From a virus (lineage: Duplodnaviria > Caudoviricetes), in the IMG/VR virus record IMGVR_UViG_3300036833_000068, positions 1 through 32,153 of that record: DNA of 32,153 bases; one strand, written 5' to 3'. How positions within the stretch are numbered: the first letter of the stretch is position 1; each line of letters starts with the position of its first letter. Positions 1 through 26,577 of the stretch are shown in pieces. A program made the translations under genes and the position numbers. A model generated the notes under the pieces. The model ran no database searches and was not told where the DNA came from. It saw only the letters and a program-made list of their open reading frames with translations.

Positions 1-59
1 GTTTAGACCGAGAGCCTTTAAGGCTACCCGAAGGGTATATTCGGCTGGGTTAGCGGATG

Positions 60-260
60 CTAACATACTCTCTCATGTATACCTTGTAACCAAGAATATT
101 GTTTATCGGATATATAGGTGGATTGACCATACTTAGTTAGGCGTTCGTCTAATCCAGTTATGAATTCCTTTTCTTTGCTGTTTAGTTCTTCGTAGAAGTT
201 ACGTATATCCTCTAAAAGAGTTTGGCATTCCGCTACCCGTTCTTGTTCAAAACTAGTCAT
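60..260 (-). CDS. small hypothetical phage protein (66 aa)
   Basis: ATGA overlap with the stop of the upstream ABC-GNAT gene; helical pattern LNSKEKEFI...ISDKQYSWLQGI resembles small phage proteins. Confidence 0.75.
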   Translation of the reverse strand: MTSFEQERVAECQTLLEDIRNFYEELNSKEKEFITGLDERLTKYGQSTYISDKQYSWLQGIHERVC

Positions 261-1837
261 CCGTTTGTCCCTTCTACTACGTATTTTGGGTCTATACCGC
301 CATTAATTAACATCGCTGCATCCGCAGGGTTCATCGCAGGTCCGATATACATAAAAACGGCACATCGCCTTCCACCGAAACCTCCGACACTTGAGGTATT
401 ACCTGCCCTGGGCGAGAACGTTCCGCTGTTCTTAACTTGCATCCAATCACGACTTCGTTGATAGGATCGTATCCAGGCGGGGTGATTTGGGTAAGAATGA
501 AGTCTCTTTCCCAAAGCCTTATATGCCGAGGCGACGGTTGTAGCGAGCACGAAAGCCAAACCGAGTCCTTGAAAGTCCGGTAACGTAACCATTCGAGTGA
601 AACCGTATATGTCATTGACGCGGGGATGTGGTCGGTAAAGGACGCCACACATAGAAGCAATTCGATATCCTCCAGTTGATTTAGGTACATCTGTGCCCAT
701 TTGTTGAATTGTTGAGATTGCTGTTGGAATATTGCTTGTTTCATCGCTCGGAGTTGTTGTTGTTGTGTCTGATGCGTCATCTGCGCGAAATACCATGTCC
801 GAATGTCCAACGCTGACTGGCACGGCGGAGGGAATCCGTGATCCTGTATCAGCTCTTGTGATATTTCCACTCCAGTATTTACGTGAACGTAGCTCTTGGT
901 TAGGAATCTGTAAGTCCATCCCTGCGGCGCTTTCTTCTGGATTGGTATGCTCGCTTGTGCCTGTTGATTCCTTCGTTCTCTCCCTACCTGAATTCGTAGT
1001 TGGATTATTTTCTTCCTTAGATTTTCTACGTAATGGACTGGACTCATCCGACGGATCGCCTCCGTCAGTTCGTCCTCCGTATCCTTCAACTGCTGCTGGA
1101 GTGGAGACAAAGATGCCATAACACCTCGCAGCGCGGTTAAGATCCGCGCTCATATAATGAAATTCACGGAAAAGCTTCCAAGTTTCGTATTTAACTCTTG
1201 AAATTGAGACATTAATTGGTGGTCTACGTTGAAGGGACCTCCAAGTAAATTTACATGGATTACTGGGTTCGAGGATCCAGTCTGGCTGGAGCCAGTCGAT
1301 TATGTCGTAGTGACAAGAAGCTACGACGAGGCGCTTGTTTTTCTCACGCACGTATTTCTGGACAGCATGACAAGTAATCTGTGCGACTTGTCTATCAACG
1401 ACTGAGGTGTACTCGTCAATAGTAATAGGAAACCGATTGTCCAGAAGATGACGCGCAATAGAAGCCCTAAACTTTTCCCCATTAGAAAGGACGTTATAAG
1501 GACGTAACCAAGCAGGGATTGTGTTAAAACCAACGGATTGACATACACGTGAAATGTCCTCCATGGTACAAACCGATGGAAAATCGTCAATGACGCTTCT
1601 GGAACCCCATTCGAGGTCCTCAGGTACGCCAAAGTACTGGTTGAGAATAAGAGTCTTTCCAGAACCCGAAGGGCCAACGATGAGTCCGATGTTATAATCT
1701 CGACTTCCATCTAGGGGTACCTCGCCAGTTAAAGAGACGTGGAGTTTGTCGTTAATGGGGACCTCGAACATGGAGCTGAGCATTTCGACTCGGTTTGTTT
1801 TTAGGATGTCACATTCTTTGTGAATGTCTATTTTCAT
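257..1837 (-). CDS. ABC-type ATPase fused to a C-terminal GNAT acetyltransferase-like domain (putative DNA-modification enzyme), with a ~140-aa insertion in the GNAT domain
   Basis: Walker A GPSGSGKT, signature LSNGEKFRA, Walker B ITIDEYTS, H-loop ASCH; GNAT elements FREFHYMS and RMVTLPDFQGLGLA (acetyl-CoA motif A); ATGA overlap with the ParB gene. Confidence 0.85.
   Translation of the reverse strand: MKIDIHKECDILKTNRVEMLSSMFEVPINDKLHVSLTGEVPLDGSRDYNIGLIVGPSGSGKTLILNQYFGVPEDLEWGSRSVIDDFPSVCTMEDISRVCQSVGFNTIPAWLRPYNVLSNGEKFRASIARHLLDNRFPITIDEYTSVVDRQVAQITCHAVQKYVREKNKRLVVASCHYDIIDWLQPDWILEPSNPCKFTWRSLQRRPPINVSISRVKYETWKLFREFHYMSADLNRAARCYGIFVSTPAAVEGYGGRTDGGDPSDESSPLRRKSKEENNPTTNSGRERTKESTGTSEHTNPEESAAGMDLQIPNQELRSRKYWSGNITRADTGSRIPSAVPVSVGHSDMVFRADDASDTTTTTPSDETSNIPTAISTIQQMGTDVPKSTGGYRIASMCGVLYRPHPRVNDIYGFTRMVTLPDFQGLGLAFVLATTVASAYKALGKRLHSYPNHPAWIRSYQRSRDWMQVKNSGTFSPRAGNTSSVGGFGGRRCAVFMYIGPAMNPADAAMLINGGIDPKYVVEGTNG
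331..1119 (-). CDS. candidate nested gene in the +1 frame inside the ABC-GNAT gene; Gln-rich helical protein
   Basis: 262 open codons; ATG preceded by GAGGTGTT; the first ~150 aa read as an amphipathic helical protein exactly where the host frame is low-complexity. Confidence 0.55.
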   Translation of the reverse strand: MASLSPLQQQLKDTEDELTEAIRRMSPVHYVENLRKKIIQLRIQVGRERRNQQAQASIPIQKKAPQGWTYRFLTKSYVHVNTGVEISQELIQDHGFPPPCQSALDIRTWYFAQMTHQTQQQQLRAMKQAIFQQQSQQFNKWAQMYLNQLEDIELLLCVASFTDHIPASMTYTVSLEWLRYRTFKDSVWLSCSLQPSPRHIRLWERDFILTQITPPGYDPINEVVIGCKLRTAERSRPGQVIPQVSEVSVEGDVPFLCISDLR

Positions 1838-2562
1838 GCCACAATCGGGCTACACGTAAGGCCCGCTCCTCTGAACTGCGTTAGTAAGGCGATTTGGTGT
1901 TGTTCGCTTTCACACTCGACGAGGATTTTATAGATTAAGGGCTTCGCCGTAGGCGTTAGGGACATCCCAGAATGAATACGTATGGCTAATTCTAGTTTAC
2001 GCTTCGCGGCTTCTCGCGAGGGTTCATTCTTTAGAATAGGGAACCTCTCGATAAGAGCGGCCGTTTCAAGGTCCTGTGATGTAGTGGAAGCGTTTTCGTT
2101 TAGGAGCTCTGCGAGCTTACGGACACCGAAGCCTGCTGGCTTTAGACCCAACTGAACACCTTTTTCAGGTTGACCAGGTTTAGGGGCGCCATAAATCTTC
2201 TCATACGTTTGGAGAAGACGTTGTTTACCGAGAACTTCTTCACTCCATGTCATGGCTTTACGTCGAATGTTTTCTTCTAGTTCTACAGCGGTCCGTCTAT
2301 AAACGTCCGCTGCTAATTCGGAGCGCCATAGATAGTGGGTGCCGTGCTCCAATTGAGTGATGCCCAACTTCTTAAGCGCCTCGAAGCGGCGGTGCCCCGC
2401 GACTAACATAAATGAATCGTTATCGCTAGAGGTTAGCGTTATGGGATTTATTAGCCCGTTTTCGGCGATTGACTTAGCAAGGTTATCTATGTCGCCCATT
2501 TCGCTTCTCATTCGATTTGACACAAGAACTTCGGAGACTGGAATATCTTGTAGTTGTTCCAT
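1834..2562 (-). CDS. ParB/Srx N-terminal domain protein with HTH and short C-terminal domain
   Basis: LAKSIAENGLINPI, LVAGHRRFEALKKLG, ELEENIRRK; C-terminal YKILVECESEQHQ..LLTQFRGAGLTC resembles the tail of ParB proteins encoded next to phage ABC-GNAT genes. Confidence 0.9.
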   Translation of the reverse strand: MEQLQDIPVSEVLVSNRMRSEMGDIDNLAKSIAENGLINPITLTSSDNDSFMLVAGHRRFEALKKLGITQLEHGTHYLWRSELAADVYRRTAVELEENIRRKAMTWSEEVLGKQRLLQTYEKIYGAPKPGQPEKGVQLGLKPAGFGVRKLAELLNENASTTSQDLETAALIERFPILKNEPSREAAKRKLELAIRIHSGMSLTPTAKPLIYKILVECESEQHQIALLTQFRGAGLTCSPIVA

Positions 2563-2582
2563 TTAGAACCTTTCGATTTTAG

Positions 2583-2606
2583 AGAGGGAGGTTTTACCCT
2601 CCCTCT
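2583..2606 (-). promoter_or_regulatory. 9-bp purine/pyrimidine stem-loop AGAGGGAGG-GTAAAA-CCTCCCTCT
   Basis: perfect inverted repeat between the SSB-like and ParB genes; no clear U-tract. Confidence 0.55.
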
Positions 2607-2607
2607 T

Positions 2608-2628
2608 AGTGTTTAGCTTCTAAACACT
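2608..2628. promoter_or_regulatory. 21-bp palindromic operator-like site, copy 1 (AGTGTTTAG-CTT-CTAAACACT)
   Basis: perfect 9-bp inverted repeat; related copies at 11148, 14383, 15874 and 26577. Confidence 0.65.
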
Positions 2629-3093
2629 TTACTTCGCTAACCCGGATGCATGCTTCGTATTGCACTTATCACCCAACGCACAGAACCATTGGTCAATCTT
2701 TGAAGAGTCCTTACCGTTGTAGGTAGTCTTCTTCAGCATAACCTTGGCTACGCCTCCGGTGAGCGGGCCTACGTACTGCCATTCACTCGGTTTGTCGTCG
2801 GGTCCCATGAATTCACCTGGGAGATCCCCGCCACCATTCGCATTCGGAACTAACGGTTGTCCGAAAGCGTGACAGACGCTTTCTAGGATCCAGGCTGCAC
2901 CCGTGTTCATGTTGTCGAATACACGCTTTCCGTTTAGGGTAGCATGATTGACAATCTTAAGCACAGGGTTTAGATTCACGGAGTCGCCATTCTTGGAAGC
3001 CTTCGGTTCAAAGTTCTCCAGCCGAAGTTCGTACAAGCCGTCTGGATATACGTTTCCCGATAGGTCTTCCTTAGAGTAGCTGATTTTTGCCAT
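2629..3093 (-). CDS. DUF669-like phage single-stranded DNA-binding protein
   Basis: YPDGLYELRLENFEPKASKNG...GKRVFDNM pattern; directly downstream of the Sak4-like ATPase; RBS AAAGGA. Confidence 0.7.
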   Translation of the reverse strand: MAKISYSKEDLSGNVYPDGLYELRLENFEPKASKNGDSVNLNPVLKIVNHATLNGKRVFDNMNTGAAWILESVCHAFGQPLVPNANGGGDLPGEFMGPDDKPSEWQYVGPLTGGVAKVMLKKTTYNGKDSSKIDQWFCALGDKCNTKHASGLAK

Positions 3094-4007: not shown

Positions 4008-5024
4008 TTAATCGTCATTCTCCTTTAATTCTTTCTCTGTACGACCTGGAATCCAGGGCTCCCTTTTCTTGTAATTAGCGGCGATTACAACTAGACGAAC
4101 CGCAGGTGTTTTCTCGTGAATGTCCCTAAAAGGACATACTTTGTAATAGAAACTGGAACAGGCAGTTTCATTCCACTGCCACGTATTCGTCTCTATAGAG
4201 TTTCGGAGTAACTCGGCTTGTTGAAGTCTTCGTCGCTTCCATTCATCGAGTTCGTCGGGGGTGTAGGATATAAGAAAACGTTTGAATCTCGGAAACTTAC
4301 CTGAATCGGTTTTATCCGTCCTATCAGTACGTGCCACGCAATTAATAATCGCCCTATCAATAGGAAAATCGAGCGAGAGAGACTTGGCCAGTATTTGCCC
4401 AGCGATGATATACCCAGGTATTTGCACATCCGGTTTATACTTATTTGACGTGTATGCGTCAATCCAACCAGTTGACTTATGATCGACGGGTAGGACTCGT
4501 CCGTCTGAAATGACATATAAATCGGGCTGTCCCATCCAGTAAAGGACGATTTTGTCTGTTTCTCCAATGCAAACCTCCTTATTTCGGCCGAACGAAGCCT
4601 CTGCGGCGAGAATCTTCCATGTACGATAATCAATTGGTAACTGGCGTGTCGCGTATTCGCTAATCATTGTTAGAGCGCCGTAGCGACCACCAAATTCTTT
4701 GTATTGTTTGAGGTGAAGGGCTTCTAGTTCGTCGAGTTTTAATTCGTTCCATACACGCATGGAGAGTGCGATAAATTCGCTGGGTTGGAGAGGTTTATTA
4801 TGGAATTGGGCCGTGTAAACCTCTTCCATAACGCGACTCCACCAGGAGCCGAGATTCATGGCGAAGGGCTTTTCACCTTTTGGAACTAGATTCTCGATAA
4901 AGGATTCTTTGAACATCGCGGGACAAGCACCGTAGACGCGTGCCATTGTGGCGTCTAGAAAGATGTCCCAGCGACCATCGGGTCTTATCTCATATAACTG
5001 GCCGGGCTTAATAGTATCTGTCAT
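4008..5024 (-). CDS. PD-(D/E)XK RecB/Cas4-like exonuclease
   Basis: N-terminal ACP, AAEASF, GQPDL...VDHKS, QIPGY, C-terminal CSSFYYKVCPFRDIH. Confidence 0.85.
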   Translation of the reverse strand: MTDTIKPGQLYEIRPDGRWDIFLDATMARVYGACPAMFKESFIENLVPKGEKPFAMNLGSWWSRVMEEVYTAQFHNKPLQPSEFIALSMRVWNELKLDELEALHLKQYKEFGGRYGALTMISEYATRQLPIDYRTWKILAAEASFGRNKEVCIGETDKIVLYWMGQPDLYVISDGRVLPVDHKSTGWIDAYTSNKYKPDVQIPGYIIAGQILAKSLSLDFPIDRAIINCVARTDRTDKTDSGKFPRFKRFLISYTPDELDEWKRRRLQQAELLRNSIETNTWQWNETACSSFYYKVCPFRDIHEKTPAVRLVVIAANYKKREPWIPGRTEKELKENDD

Positions 5025-7247: not shown

Positions 7248-8417
7248 TTATACCTTTCTACACGCCATCTCTACGGCTGCTTGTATGTCGGTTATAGATG
7301 CTAAGGGGCTATGTAAACGTCTAATTGCTGGCGTGTTTGGACTAAGATAGAGCATATCCCCCTGAGACAATAATTGTTCTGCCCCTCCAGTTCCAAGTAT
7401 CGTCCTTGAATCGGCTTCAGAAGGCAGTCTAAAGCTAACTCTCGCCGGAAAGTTAGCCTTGATATTTCCTTCGACAACTCTAACCGAAGGTCTTTGAGTA
7501 GCTGCAATGATATGGATTCCTGTCGCACGAGCTTTTTGAGCTATGAGTCCAAGCTGATACTCGGCTCGTTTACCGCGCTTTCTATATTTGATTTTTCCAT
7601 CGGCATCCGTGTACTCCTCCTTAGTTTGATCCTGTAATATCTCTGCGAGTTCGTCTATGACGAATACGACGTACGGCATTGGTGTGCGAGCCACCTGGTT
7701 ATATTGGAGGATGTTTTGCGCCGTGCTGCGGGCCATTAGTGATAACCTGCGATTAACTTCGTCGATGAGCCACTCCATTTGTTCCATTGTATCTGCGATA
7801 CTTGTGGAGACAGGGTACATCAAATGGGGGGTGCCGACGAAGTTGGTGAACTCGACCTGCTTTACGTCGCTTAGAACTAGCTTAACTCTGGTTGGTGGTA
7901 CGGTGTAAATAAGTGACGCGAGAATAGAATTAAGGAGCGTAGACTTACCCGAACCCGTGGCTCCAGCAATAAGGAGATGCGGCAATAGAGGTAAGTCCTC
8001 GATGACGAACTCACCCATATGATCAATCCCAAACATGACGGGGATCCTGTGGTGTTGTTTCTCAAAAGCATTCCACACATGCCCGACCGAGTCGCGGAAT
8101 AAAACTGGCTTTTTGTCTTTATTGGGTACATAAATACCTACCGCGCTTTCTCCAGGTAACCTCTTGACCTGGACTGCTTCGACGCCGAGGGCGATTGCCA
8201 TGTCGTCTGCTAGGCGCTCGACTAATTGAACGCGTGTTGCGTTTTGAGGTACAAAGCGATAAAGGGTAACTACTGGCCCTTCCGAGACCTGTTGTGTGAA
8301 GTGACCGTCTATGCCAAGAGCCGATAATTTCACCTGAAGGGTTGCCAGGACCTTCAGGTGTTTGTCGTCAAGTTTCGCTGGAGTCGGAGATGGATTTAGC
8401 GTTGACATGGGCAACAC
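7248..8417 (-). CDS. FtsK/SpoIIIE-family DNA translocase motor (alpha+beta domains only)
   Basis: GPVVTLY alpha-domain motif, PHLLIAGATGSGKS, VFVIDELAE, AQKARATGIHIIAATQRPS, GAEQLLSQGDMLY; no transmembrane or gamma domain visible. Confidence 0.92.
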   Translation of the reverse strand: MLPMSTLNPSPTPAKLDDKHLKVLATLQVKLSALGIDGHFTQQVSEGPVVTLYRFVPQNATRVQLVERLADDMAIALGVEAVQVKRLPGESAVGIYVPNKDKKPVLFRDSVGHVWNAFEKQHHRIPVMFGIDHMGEFVIEDLPLLPHLLIAGATGSGKSTLLNSILASLIYTVPPTRVKLVLSDVKQVEFTNFVGTPHLMYPVSTSIADTMEQMEWLIDEVNRRLSLMARSTAQNILQYNQVARTPMPYVVFVIDELAEILQDQTKEEYTDADGKIKYRKRGKRAEYQLGLIAQKARATGIHIIAATQRPSVRVVEGNIKANFPARVSFRLPSEADSRTILGTGGAEQLLSQGDMLYLSPNTPAIRRLHSPLASITDIQAAVEMACRKV

Positions 8418-9133
8418 TAACGTACCTCATCCGCTCCCATAAGGGAGCCCCTTGTAGTTTCCGGCAACTGCGCGAATTCTTCCCTTTGTCCTGGTAAGAG
8501 GTAATGCAAGGATTGGCTAAAAGCCAATACGTCCTTGAACTTGAAGAACATCCCTCCGGTTATCTCCGCTATCTTCTTCAAGGTTTCTTCACCGCGACTG
8601 GAGTCACCGATATGAAAACAGTCACAAACGATTTCACGGTTACGATACAACCTTGCGGCATCGTAACATTTGTCACCGTCGGTTTGCTCTCCATCTGATA
8701 TAAGCATCGCTCTGGTAGGTGAATGAGATTCGAGCGCATTGAGTAGCCCTTGCCCCATCGGCGTATCTCCGATTGATTTAACTTGGAGCATACGCATCCA
8801 GACTTCCTGAGAGTCATTTGTTAGCTCGATTCTGAACCCATAGGGGAAGGATTCTACGGCGATAGCCGTGCTAGAGGTGTCGGACTTTAAGGCGAAGTCT
8901 TGTACGCCTTCGGCCAGGAGACTGAGTTTTGACTTAGAGGAATCGCTTTTATAACTCGCTGGTGAGTCCATCGAGCCGCTGAAGTCACAGATAATCGCCA
9001 AGCGATTTGGAAACATCTTTGGATCAACCTGCGGTGCAATCTCCTTCATTAGCTCGGCGCTTTTAATGCGCGAATGAAGACCACCACCGACACTTATTTT
9101 ATTACGTGTTACGATTTTATTATTATCAGTCAC
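8417..9133 (-). CDS. von Willebrand factor A (vWA) domain protein
   Basis: MIDAS DFSGS, GDTPMG, LISDGE, LKKIAEITGG; start reassigned to GTG 9133 (GTGA overlap). Confidence 0.9.
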   Translation of the reverse strand: MTDNNKIVTRNKISVGGGLHSRIKSAELMKEIAPQVDPKMFPNRLAIICDFSGSMDSPASYKSDSSKSKLSLLAEGVQDFALKSDTSSTAIAVESFPYGFRIELTNDSQEVWMRMLQVKSIGDTPMGQGLLNALESHSPTRAMLISDGEQTDGDKCYDAARLYRNREIVCDCFHIGDSSRGEETLKKIAEITGGMFFKFKDVLAFSQSLHYLLPGQREEFAQLPETTRGSLMGADEVR

Positions 9134-9339
9134 GTTGTTTTCCCTTTCCCCTTCTCCTCTACCCAATAGGACATACGAAGGATAGCAATCCTATCTCCTT
9201 CTCGAAATTGCCAGTAGACCGATAGTTTAGAAGGTGTCATGCTATACCCTTCGGGTATAGTGGAACCTTCGCTACGAGTCTTGAATGGAACGGATTTATC
9301 AAAGAACGCCTTCAACATTTCGGTGTCAGTTGGAAGCAT
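9130..9339 (-). CDS. hypothetical protein (69 aa)
   Basis: overlaps both neighbours; GGGGAG before ATG. Confidence 0.65.
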   Translation of the reverse strand: MLPTDTEMLKAFFDKSVPFKTRSEGSTIPEGYSMTPSKLSVYWQFREGDRIAILRMSYWVEEKGKGKTT

Positions 9340-22674: not shown

Positions 22675-23628
22675 ATGACAATGGTAAGAGGGCAGTTCTC
22701 ACAACTACAGGCTCCGGGTCTTCACGGTGAATTCGTTCACTGGGTGGATACGCTACAACGTGAAGAAGAATTCTCGCATATTCTTCACGTGGAGTCTTCT
22801 GATAAGGCATTCGAGGATGAAGTCGAGTTTGCGGGACTTCCCCCGATGCCAGAGAAACCTGAAGGCGAAGCAACGATTTATCAAGACGCCATTCAGGGTG
22901 GTACCAAACGATATATCAACTTCACGTATGCAATGGGTGTGCGTAGCTCCTTCGAGCTTTACGAAGACGACCAGTATGGCGTTATCATGCAGGTCCCGAA
23001 GGCATTGGCACGAAGTGCCCACTTCACGAAGGAGCAAAATGCGTGGAACCTCTTTAATCTGGGATTTACGACACAGGTTACCGCTGACGGTGTTTCGTTA
23101 TTCAACAACCAGCACCCTCTTCTTGGTGGAACTAGTGCGACGAGCGTGGGCCCGGGTCTCTCTAACATCATCTCCGCAGCAGGTACGTATCCAAATAGGC
23201 CCGCTACGGATGTGGATCTTTCGTTTACCGCGATTCAATTAATGGTCAATCAATTCGAACGTTTGGTGGATTCTCAGGGCTTGCCCATCTCCATTAAGCC
23301 TCGTTACTTGATTATCCCCCCCGAACTAAAATGGATTGCGCGTGAAATCCTTGGTTCTCCACACAAGCCCTACACGGCCGATAACGAAATCAATGCATTG
23401 ATTAAAGAAGACTTGCAGTACTTCATTAGCCACTACTTGACTTCTCAGTCCGCCTGGTACGCAGTAACAGAGAAAGAAGGACATTGGTTGAAGTTCCTGG
23501 TTCGTAAAGAACTGGACGAAGATTTCTCCGATGACTTCGATACTTTCTCTATTAAGCAGCTCTCCAGGATGCGCTTCTCCTTTGGCGCCACTTCTTGGAT
23601 GGGCACGTGGGGTTCTAACGGGCCGTAG
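22675..23628 (+). CDS. major capsid protein (HK97 fold, Mu gpT-like family)
   Basis: EKPEGEA..Y, ELYEDDQY, ALARSA..TKE, ADGVSLFNNQHP, KPRYLIIPPEL..AREIL.S, DFDT...RFSFG. Confidence 0.9.
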   Translation: MTMVRGQFSQLQAPGLHGEFVHWVDTLQREEEFSHILHVESSDKAFEDEVEFAGLPPMPEKPEGEATIYQDAIQGGTKRYINFTYAMGVRSSFELYEDDQYGVIMQVPKALARSAHFTKEQNAWNLFNLGFTTQVTADGVSLFNNQHPLLGGTSATSVGPGLSNIISAAGTYPNRPATDVDLSFTAIQLMVNQFERLVDSQGLPISIKPRYLIIPPELKWIAREILGSPHKPYTADNEINALIKEDLQYFISHYLTSQSAWYAVTEKEGHWLKFLVRKELDEDFSDDFDTFSIKQLSRMRFSFGATSWMGTWGSNGP

Positions 23629-24887: not shown

Positions 24888-25282
24888 TGGGAAAATCACT
24901 AGACGAGCTTGCATCCTACTTTAGACCGATAGCCGAAGGCATTCTATCTGATGCTACAGATGCCGGTCTAGACCCAGTTATAGAGGATACTGGTCGTACA
25001 GAGCCCGAACAGGCAGTTAAGATAGCGACTAATGTAAGCTGGACAACAACGTCTAAACATTTGCCTCAACCACCAGAAGGGAAGAGCGAGGCGATTGACA
25101 TTGTGCCGCGAGTCTGTATTTCTTTGAAGTACTGGGGATGGACTGGGGAAGTTGGAACTAGCCATCCTTATTGGGGAAAACTGATTGAAATTGGGAGAAA
25201 ACGTGGGGCTCGTTGTGGAGTTGACTTCCCACATCCAGACCCTGGGCACTTTCAATGGATTTCAGGTGTAGAAACAGCATGA
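24887..25282 (+). CDS. endolysin, peptidase M15 family (L-Ala-D-Glu peptidase-like)
   Basis: GRT..EQ, SKH, AIDIV, DPGHFQ zinc-site motifs; start reassigned to ATG 24887 (TAATG overlap). Confidence 0.85.
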   Translation: MGKSLDELASYFRPIAEGILSDATDAGLDPVIEDTGRTEPEQAVKIATNVSWTTTSKHLPQPPEGKSEAIDIVPRVCISLKYWGWTGEVGTSHPYWGKLIEIGRKRGARCGVDFPHPDPGHFQWISGVETA

Positions 25283-26577
25283 GGTTAGACGACATGGGTT
25301 TCCTAATCATATCCGAAGGCGGAGATGGTCTTGGATTGGCTATTCGTCTACAGAACGAAGGTCACAAAACCTCAATGTGGATTCGTGACCCTATCTCCGA
25401 TCAGCGAGGTGAAGGACTTGTTCAAAAAGGGGAAGTTCCCGAACTTAACTCCACTATCATTGCTGATTGTACTGGGGCTGGCGCTCTTCTTGATTCTTAT
25501 AGAAGCTCTGAAATTCGTACTTTTGGTGGTTCACAAATTGCAGATAAGCTAGAATCAGATAGGAAGCTTGCAACTGAGGTTTTCAATGAATGTAAAATCC
25601 CACAACCAAATTCGCAGAATTTTACGAACTGGGAAGAAGCAGAAGAATACATTAACAACTATGAAGGTGAATCGAAACTTGTCTTCAAGCCAGAAGGCAA
25701 ATTTAGTGGCGTTCTTCCCTCCTACGTCCCCAATAATAACGATGAGCTGTTGTCAATGTTCGAACATTTTAAGGGAATTATTGGCTCCGAAGAACCTGAA
25801 TTCGTTTTACAGGAGTTTATTGAAGGCACTTGCATCTCCAGTGAAATCTGGTGTGCGAAAGGACAGCCGATCTGGCCAACCAATCATACACTAGAACGTA
25901 AGCAATTCATGAATGGGGATATAGGCCCGTCTGGTGGTTGTACTGGTAACGTCGTATGGCGTTGTGACGATATGTCCTGTCCACTTTGTGCAAACTTATT
26001 GAAATTGGAACCATTTCTTAAAGAACACGAATGGACAGGTCCTATCGACATTAACACCGTTGTTTCCAATGAAGGGTCTATATACGCTTTAGAGTTCACT
26101 CCCAGGATGGGCTACGATGCTTTCCCAACATTTCTGTCTGGGCTGTTTGAAGGAGACTTCGGAGGATTCATCAACGATAGTTGTCGGGGTGATTCAAGGG
26201 ACCAGCCTCTCCGCGAGGGCTTCGCTGCGGGGATTAGGGTATCGTTGCCTCCCTGGCCTTCTGAGGACTTCCACTCCAAGTCAGGTATTGAAATTAGAGG
26301 ACTACGCGAATCTGATGTTAGCGGAATGGCCCCGTCCTTCTATCCTTATGAGGTTAGTAGCCAAAAAGATACTTATGTCACAAGCGGTGGGTGGGGCGCC
26401 GTTGGGGTATGTGTCGGGTATGGGAAAGACGTAGAGACGGCATTTGATGAAGCGTACTCTATGGTGAAGAAACTTAAGATACCTGATATGCAGTATCGAA
26501 CCGATTTCGCACACGTATTTAAGAAGGACCTTTATATGCTACGTCGTGCCTTTAACAAGACCTTTGCGCGAGTTTAA
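25279..26577 (+). CDS. divergent PurD (GAR synthetase)-like ATP-grasp ligase
   Basis: FGGSQIADKLESDR, VFKPEG, LQEFIEG..IS, GDIGPSGGCTG, LEFTPRMGYD, YRTD; start ATG 25279 (ATGA overlap). Confidence 0.85.
   Translation: MRLDDMGFLIISEGGDGLGLAIRLQNEGHKTSMWIRDPISDQRGEGLVQKGEVPELNSTIIADCTGAGALLDSYRSSEIRTFGGSQIADKLESDRKLATEVFNECKIPQPNSQNFTNWEEAEEYINNYEGESKLVFKPEGKFSGVLPSYVPNNNDELLSMFEHFKGIIGSEEPEFVLQEFIEGTCISSEIWCAKGQPIWPTNHTLERKQFMNGDIGPSGGCTGNVVWRCDDMSCPLCANLLKLEPFLKEHEWTGPIDINTVVSNEGSIYALEFTPRMGYDAFPTFLSGLFEGDFGGFINDSCRGDSRDQPLREGFAAGIRVSLPPWPSEDFHSKSGIEIRGLRESDVSGMAPSFYPYEVSSQKDTYVTSGGWGAVGVCVGYGKDVETAFDEAYSMVKKLKIPDMQYRTDFAHVFKKDLYMLRRAFNKTFARV

Follow-up and report, generated by a model that had tools for sequence, protein, structure and literature searches.

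A candidate overprinted gene inside an ABC-ATPase/GNAT gene of soil phages and its possible growth by loop insertion

Described nested genes and the locus analysed

Dual constraint is usually regarded as an obstacle to nested genes. Overprinted nested genes are known from viruses, such as gene E inside gene D of phiX174, and the birth of overprinted genes has been described as proceeding via point mutation, the word 'insertion' being absent from the available text of the review concerned (PMC8227390). The nearest published layout that we found, according to the accessible part of its report, is an intein with an out-of-frame nuclease (10.1101/2025.01.02.630785). The nearest functional precedent, in which a nested product acts on the enzyme that hosts it, is GndA, an altORF in the E. 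coli gene gnd with an overlap of ~38 codons, whose tested microprotein relocalises its host Gnd according to the accessible text (10.64898/2026.10.22.760973). In addition, the pairing of an ABC ATPase with a coupled GNAT domain is predicted, in the part of the source available, to acylate a DNA base as a nucleobase-acylation system (PMC7824862).

We analysed a stretch of 32,153 nucleotides (hereafter the window), a tailed-phage contig with terminase, portal and capsid genes on its plus strand and FtsK, PD-(D/E)XK nuclease, Sak4, SSB, ParB and ABC-ATPase/GNAT genes on its minus strand. Comparison with GenBank phages gave 80 matching records, every one below 60% identity and none with 80% coverage; the tRNA search found none, and promoter and terminator counts were at chance level. 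VWA-like and FtsK/SpoIIIE genes stand side by side in the early arm (7248-9166, minus strand). The phages in which the ABC-ATPase/GNAT gene carries a nested ORF form a group of soil phages.

The host gene (257..1837, minus strand; 526 aa) was identified from PHROGs, motifs and profile as coding for a fusion of an ABC-type ATPase with a GNAT acyltransferase. Its product matched phrog_11143 with an E value of 4.6e-87, the match being split into two stretches, and contains Walker A (aa 55-62), LSNGE (117-121) and Walker B (141-145) motifs, while the profile of its C-half was matched by GNAT chain 3ec4 (E 3.7e-4) and PF00583 was found on insert-less homologues. Both features, the ABC ATPase motifs and the fused GNAT domain, are thus present in one protein. 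Its description as a DNA-modifying enzyme follows the published family prediction, base acylation being putative. The stop of a ParB-like gene (1834..2562, minus strand; PF02195, E 2.9e-8) overlaps the host start in an ATGA, and the long relatives of the host gene likewise have a ParB-like gene as upstream neighbour.

Wholly within the host gene, on the same strand and one base out of step, lies a +1 ORF of 262 aa that runs from ATG to TGA (331..1119, minus strand); the two ORFs (1837-257 and 1119-331) are positioned as the first-pass annotation of this DNA had described. The GNAT domain is interrupted by a dual-coded insert of ~147 codons (665..1105, minus strand; host aa 245-391), visible as an alignment gap at the site, which reads in the host frame as a low-complexity S/G/T/D/E loop, probably disordered on the grounds of composition and alignment, and in the +1 frame as predicted folded modules. 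Beyond the insert, the +1 ORF continues for 111 stop-free codons as a tail that overlaps the conserved C-half of the GNAT domain (331..666, minus strand).

This arrangement shares with the phiX174 E/D type, so far as the available text of the review covers it, the same strand, a shifted frame, full containment and a disorder that eases dual constraint (PMC8227390), as well as a distribution narrower than that of the ancestral frame, here 20/20 loci of the clade and 0/105 outside it. Unlike in overprinted viral genes, the overlap here appears to have grown through insertion of DNA in frame, and along this single overlap selection changes from one frame to the other, the insert being predicted as folded in +1 and disordered in the host frame and the tail the reverse. 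With the intein, as presented in the accessible part of the report, it has in common a phage-enzyme insert without shape in the host frame that would form a folded protein in another frame (10.1101/2025.01.02.630785); in contrast to it, no splicing domain, intein ends or recognisable nuclease were recognised here, the length is highly variable, and the nested ORF covers a conserved part of the enzyme and occurs without the insert. GndA resembles the +1 ORF, going by its accessible text, in being an internal out-of-frame ORF with its own start, putative in the case of the +1 ORF, at a place in an enzyme gene that tolerates it (10.64898/2026.10.22.760973), whereas the product here is 117-306 aa long, modular, apparently insertion-grown and predicted from sequence. 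The host domain pair is that of the ABC-ATPase-coupled GNAT system, and a ParB-like neighbour is seen here; the nested gene distinguishes this clade from the family at large, the passage concerned in section 3.4.7 of the source making no mention of one (PMC7824862). Overall, a nested overprinted gene is of a known kind. Its growth by loop insertion was not found described in the literature searched, an incomplete sample, nor did this sample, supplements excluded, contain a description of a nested ORF in this ABC-GNAT family.

Open frames, putative start site and frame-specific selection

DNA scans, including a metagenome scan anchored on GNAT C-half motifs in which open frames were not a criterion, gave 22 non-redundant clade loci including the window, 18 with the insert (3 of them cut by contig ends) and 4 without. 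In the clade loci of full length, the start region and the stop of the +1 ORF coincide, and the frame is open between them. The ABC half is broken in L156, and L169 carries a 30-codon GNAT deletion; L169 and duplicate loci were left out of the frame-identity, stop-count, dN/dS and host-frame-stop analyses.

The opening of 262 codons exceeds chance: among the 17 other genes of the window, 0/2281 windows of this length were stop-free in +1, against 126/4460 (~2.8%) of the 111-codon windows. Over the GNAT C-half, 20/20 distinct clade loci lacked a +1 stop, against 0/105 loci outside the clade, and the GC-matched outsiders (n = 20) had 1-10 such stops each, the +1 frame being closed in the family at large. 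The 22 loci showed 0 stops in this region where codon usage predicted 72, compared with 147 observed and 144 expected in the ABC half as control, counts that are non-independent as the loci are related and recombining. At sites where a stop is possible, the codon pairs dodge it, GTA occurring before T only and ATA before C only. The host frame is kept open as well, with 0 stops in the 18 inserts against 114 expected if the +1 protein alone mattered, and 0 against 7.8 in the insert of the window. The double opening, noted earlier for ~790 nt of the window, was confirmed and proved larger than first seen, and stops in close relatives, which would have spoken against the nested gene, were absent from all 20 loci over the GNAT C-half.

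Within the insert, dN/dS in four close pairs was 0.20-0.36 in the +1 frame; the host frame gave 0.73-1.69 and +2 gave 0.84-1.27. Substitutions in the insert were concentrated at the +1 wobble position. In the GNAT C-half, the differences between divergent pairs fell mainly at host third positions. Selection on the +1 frame within the insert and on the host frame outside it, as the first-pass annotation had proposed, agrees with both the dN/dS values and the substitution positions, and conservation of the insert in the host frame, which would have contradicted it, is not what these values describe. The layout and the frame-specific selection are direct observations, and going by the substitution pattern the +1 frame in the insert is under purifying selection.

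The tail behaves differently from the insert. Its +1 identity was 35-58% in divergent pairs, and synonymous identity in the region was barely raised (0.48 compared with 0.45 in the ABC half). Conservative changes seemed to be in excess, and amino-acid constraint on the tail at first looked significant; it was rejected, about half of the excess being matched by the ABC control. From these comparisons, stop avoidance alone appears clear for the tail, and its amino-acid sequence seems hardly conserved.

Poor conservation of the tail, together with the ~2.8% of 111-codon windows that are stop-free in other genes, would fit a +1 frame that is a by-product held open by codon bias, or the dead remnant of a once-captured gene decaying in the loop. 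We consider this very improbable, as the +1 dN/dS is ~0.2 in close pairs, stop avoidance persists across diverged synonymous sites, the start motif is conserved and the antisense control frames yielded at most one comparable run.

The +1 frame is very probably translated from an internal start at 1119. A Shine-Dalgarno-like GCGAGGTGTT abuts the +1 ATG with unusually short spacing (1120..1129, minus strand; duplex energy -9.2 kcal/mol). Such motifs had been reported before 1119 and 9661, and GCGAGGTGTT-ATG and AAGGAGGTTT-ATG are indeed both present. The distance from GAGGT to the ATG is 3 nt, which is below the usual optimum, and because of this short spacing a low level of +1 protein would be expected. 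The GAGGTG motif (GCG-AGG-TG) precedes the ATG in 15/15 insert-bearers covering the site, with varying codons before it, and is built of codons that make up ~13% of Ala (GCG) and ~13% of Arg (AGG) codons; it is weaker in three of the four insert-less relatives. The ATG at C-Y-G is kept in 17 of the 19 loci that cover it, and in the remaining two, L155 and L156, another ATG lies 3 codons on. RNA structure at the nested start was nothing unusual (z -0.75). At its other end, the +1 ORF terminates in an ATGA overlap at host A-M-N.

In prfB, according to the part of the source available, +1 shifting is stimulated by a Shine-Dalgarno sequence placed 3 nt upstream of the slippery site (PMC10798248), and the motif just upstream with its short spacing, the conserved AGG codon at the site and a +1 frame that is open for 6-13 codons before the ATG fit that geometry. 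The real second product could then be a fusion of the ABC ATPase with the +1 modules, made by a frameshift that GAGGTG drives. This is decidedly unlikely: there is no conserved slippery codon and no in-frame host stop after the motif, the codons following TGY-TAY vary, and the ATG itself is conserved, a nearby ATG substituting where it is lost. For the frameshifted ABC-X or X-GNAT chimeras that had been suggested at first, a conserved shift site is absent.

The insert, its predicted modules and their probable history

The GNAT flanks of the insert are AARCYGIFV, ending at nt 1106 (aa 244), and RIASMCG, starting at nt 664 (aa 392); the residues first assigned to it, 246-389, were nearly right, the exact limits being aa 245-391. 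The TTTTT of the host reading, taken as a repeat read out of phase, does correspond to ACA-repeat DNA that gives QQQQ in +1. A host-protein search in which 8000 candidates were scored returned 5699 relatives, and most of the 120 listed are ~370 aa long, family members without the insert having ~365-375 aa. Their alignment showed the gap at the site predicted for it. The insert pattern was matched by 35 of the best 55 proteins (window included), with 16-174 extra residues at one site, and the insert residues were poorly conserved in the host frame among relatives.

An assembly chimera is ruled out by the repetition of the layout in 17 other insert-bearing loci. Among the sequencing runs listed for this DNA there was no RNA run, and one DNA run may be its source. 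In the contigs of that DNA run the sequence was without differences and the 3' junction was bridged, the 5' junction lying within a 27-nt contig overlap and not being formally bridged. The contigs of this run break exactly at the 5' junction (window 1080-1106), with a depth of 8.3 upstream and 6.6 downstream. The break may reflect a co-occurring allele with a different insert; no contig with an alternative insert at this junction was present among the contigs listed. L083 and L164 are mosaic alleles, in which the inserts are near-identical and the GNAT C-halves joined to them have diverged (L161 and L163 serve for comparison); +1 is still open in both.

The fixed site of the insert and its swapping between alleles would also suit a selfish element (an intein, an intron or a hopped segment) that is removed from the host product and carries its own gene out-of-frame. 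Inteins are recognised by a Hint domain, an HN-[C/S/T] C-terminal junction and fixed ends. HN was found in the last 10 residues of 0/35 inserts, the ends vary and the lengths range over 16-174 aa, there was no Pfam match to a Hint domain or nuclease, and the +1 ORF extends 111 codons past the insert and also occurs in its absence. The accessible part of one report does describe inteins whose homing nuclease is encoded out of frame (10.1101/2025.01.02.630785), and even so we regard such an element as extremely unlikely here. A group I or II intron was rejected, with no Rfam match at E <=1 in 1-3000 and some inserts of just 16-26 codons. The insert is neither an intein nor an intron.

AF2 models of the +1 product, built from shallow alignments (22 and 13 rows), gave pLDDT >90 for most of aa 1-140, with a helical hairpin, three short strands, a short helix and a long helix, and pLDDT mostly <50 for the tail; structure prediction, proposed as a check on the +1 frame, has the insert part folded and the tail not. 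Two modules can be distinguished. Module A is a predicted helical hairpin at aa 6-56 (949..1119, minus strand; helices 6-23 and 28-56, pLDDT >90). It resembles internal parts of the homologues P0128 and P0125 (pairwise BLASTP E 4e-5 and 5e-5), and by alignment it is N-terminal in the window and C-terminal to the core in those two. Module B (709..933, minus strand) is the conserved core defined by alignment, W-x5-T-x4-H-x2-TG...D[YH]GFP-x-P...IR-x-WY, which when modelled alone reached a mean pLDDT of 92 as a three-stranded meander, a short helix and a long Q-rich helix. The three short strands follow a PxGW-like start, and the meander may resemble a WW domain, a fold marked by three strands, two signature Trp and a closing Pro; a WW match for the core was found neither in Pfam (22 members) nor by fold search. 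Several clade members lack the core or have another sequence in its place, and P0029 and P0030, identical outside the insert, have different inserts of ~111 and ~15 residues. These comparisons suggest that modules have been gained, duplicated, reordered, swapped and lost at the insert site.

A profile search of 1.84 billion cluster representatives gave 10 hits. Nine are gene calls of this very +1 frame and all of them include the tail that overlaps GNAT, or at least its beginning; the tenth (P0131) was left out as repetitive sequence; no stand-alone homologue occurred among these representatives. With +1 aa 1-160, a word-based homologue search retained 0/11 candidates at E <=0.1 and a DNA scan of viral contigs gave no match. 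The +1 product had no credible match in PHROGs, Pfam, NCBIfam or PDB sequences, none of 22 members matched a nuclease family in Pfam, and Foldseek returned no match at E <=0.001. In VIA fold search the best Z was 7.9 for the hairpin, a generic fold, and 3.9 for the core, no clear fold match, and ESM Atlas yielded no usable match for P0002 1-152 and P0123 1-165, from which neither novelty nor absence follows.

The first-pass annotation had pictured a free-standing gene dropped into a loop; the lack of a stand-alone homologue and a 117-codon +1 ORF in four insert-less relatives argue against this. A quick, midpoint-rooted tree of insert-free host sequences, from which 8 proteins skipped by the pattern and 10 duplicates were left out, required 3 changes to account for 42 rows with the insert and 21 without it. 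The +1 ORF was present in 3/3 members with DNA (L002, L084, L121) of an insert-less sister group (support 99), and because this group has the 117-codon ORF the overlap is likely older than the insert. Insert-less L085 (P0031) falls at the base of the insert group without clear placement, and insert-less P0022 inside it. The tree is compatible with one gain of the insert followed by losses, and some insert-less forms may be such losses.

Taken together, an older overprinted ORF that grew swappable N-terminal modules is the likely history, as far as sequence comparison can tell. In the ancestor of the clade, a 117-codon +1 ORF would have arisen by overprinting on the GNAT half, with its start at a two-residue turn of the host (CYGLFV-xx-RIASMCG). 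Because the start sits at this turn, DNA inserted there in frame would lengthen the +1 N-terminus, the enzyme gaining just a disordered loop, and the turn could have become a slot for the turnover of modules. The host product would be read straight through, the loop being retained without splicing, and the +1 protein would be a separate product made at a low level.

It is likely that the +1 ORF is a real overprinted gene with its own start at 1119 and a separate protein, probably a variable protein-binding accessory factor. Its role can be named tentatively. From the turnover of its modules beside a constant enzyme we propose, as a possibility short of an even chance, that the accessory protein may bind a variable host target (in counter-defence or host takeover), acting perhaps in the replication phase. 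It is doubtful that the protein serves the ABC-GNAT/ParB machinery encoded with it as a built-in partner or regulator, comparable to GndA and Gnd. The same mRNA, the strict co-inheritance of the +1 ORF with the host gene and the finding that other nested ORFs of the relatives lie mostly within DNA enzymes would suit a regulator, as would the precedent of GndA, an altORF in a tolerant interdomain linker according to its accessible text (10.64898/2026.10.22.760973). A regulator would be hard to reconcile with identical hosts that bear inserts of ~111 and ~15 residues, with the loss or replacement of the core in several members, and with the lack of such an ORF in the family outside the clade; we infer that the binder of a host target stands ahead of it.

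The proposed overprinted gene suggests a way out of dual constraint, in which insertion into a loop frees the younger frame for folded, shuffled modules and the enzyme bears the cost as disorder. Because the clade preserves a series, from no insert through 16 to 174 residues with reordered and swapped modules, domain birth in an overprinted gene becomes directly testable. It also cautions that a 'disordered insertion' in the annotation of a phage enzyme can be the trace of an overlooked gene.

Further out-of-frame ORFs in the lineage

Alternative frames were surveyed in 23 host gene families, drawn from the window, the genomes of six relatives and eight other loci, and the survey pointed to several further candidate hidden genes within one phage group. 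Of all stop-free runs shared in an alternative frame, GNAT +1 was the strongest, with 5.9 expected stops per sequence, followed by polymerase +1 (2.9), primase +1 (2.8), glycosylase/exonuclease +2 (2.8) and nuclease +1 (2.5); no antisense run exceeded 2.3, a value reached in a family of just 7 rows. Out-of-frame ATGs are conserved at 76 columns. Of the 12 columns where the Shine-Dalgarno motif is strongest, 7 lead into ORFs with a median of at least 60 codons, the rank correlation across all 76 being not significant (p 0.14). Synonymous constraint at the further candidates was slight.

First, the PD-(D/E)XK nuclease gene (4008-5024) contains a nested +1 ORF of 146 aa from TTG (window 4193-4633, minus strand), with a 62-column +1 stop-free run in 11/11 homologues, the starts and ends of which vary. 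Second, the glycosylase/3'-5' exonuclease-like gene and its homologues contain two nested ORFs with Shine-Dalgarno-like motifs (8263-8550 and 8753-9016 in locus L159), of ~90 aa in +1 and ~97 aa in +2. A third conserved ATG occurs at the stop column of the +2 ORF, as if coupled. Third, the PolA-like gene and its homologues hold two nested +1 ORFs of ~100-150 aa (8739-9173 and 9357-9662 in L082), the first with GAGGAGG-like motifs, and the primase-like gene and its homologues hold one of 70-96 aa (11422-11694 in L083), preceded in 11/11 homologues by an AAGGAG-type motif, the strongest among the conserved out-of-frame ATGs. In addition, a GARS-like ATP-grasp gene (25255-26577) contains a nested +1 ORF of ~102-105 aa (window 26117-26434, plus strand) with a conserved, Shine-Dalgarno-led ATG in 4/6 homologues.

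It is possible, at somewhat less than even chances, that the lineage hides a layer of Shine-Dalgarno-led, sense-strand, out-of-frame genes in its DNA enzymes, of which the one in GNAT would represent a new route of gene growth. If so, the hosts of hidden genes would be the nuclease, the ABC-GNAT enzyme, the glycosylase/exonuclease, the polymerase and the primase; an overprinted gene would turn a loop of an enzyme into a slot for swappable cassettes and evolve new folded modules there; and selection would alternate between frames along one stretch of DNA, without splicing.

Two more +1 ORFs are less regular. In the major capsid gene, an ORF of 171 aa (window 22727-23242, plus strand) shows a weak shared stop-free run of 1.2 expected stops among 7 homologues that are 90-93% identical. 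In the ABC half of the host gene itself, the ORF list contains a second +1 ORF of 129 aa with a GAGGT motif 8 nt before its ATG (1321..1710, minus strand), which is patchy, being long in 7/16 homologues and short or absent in the others.
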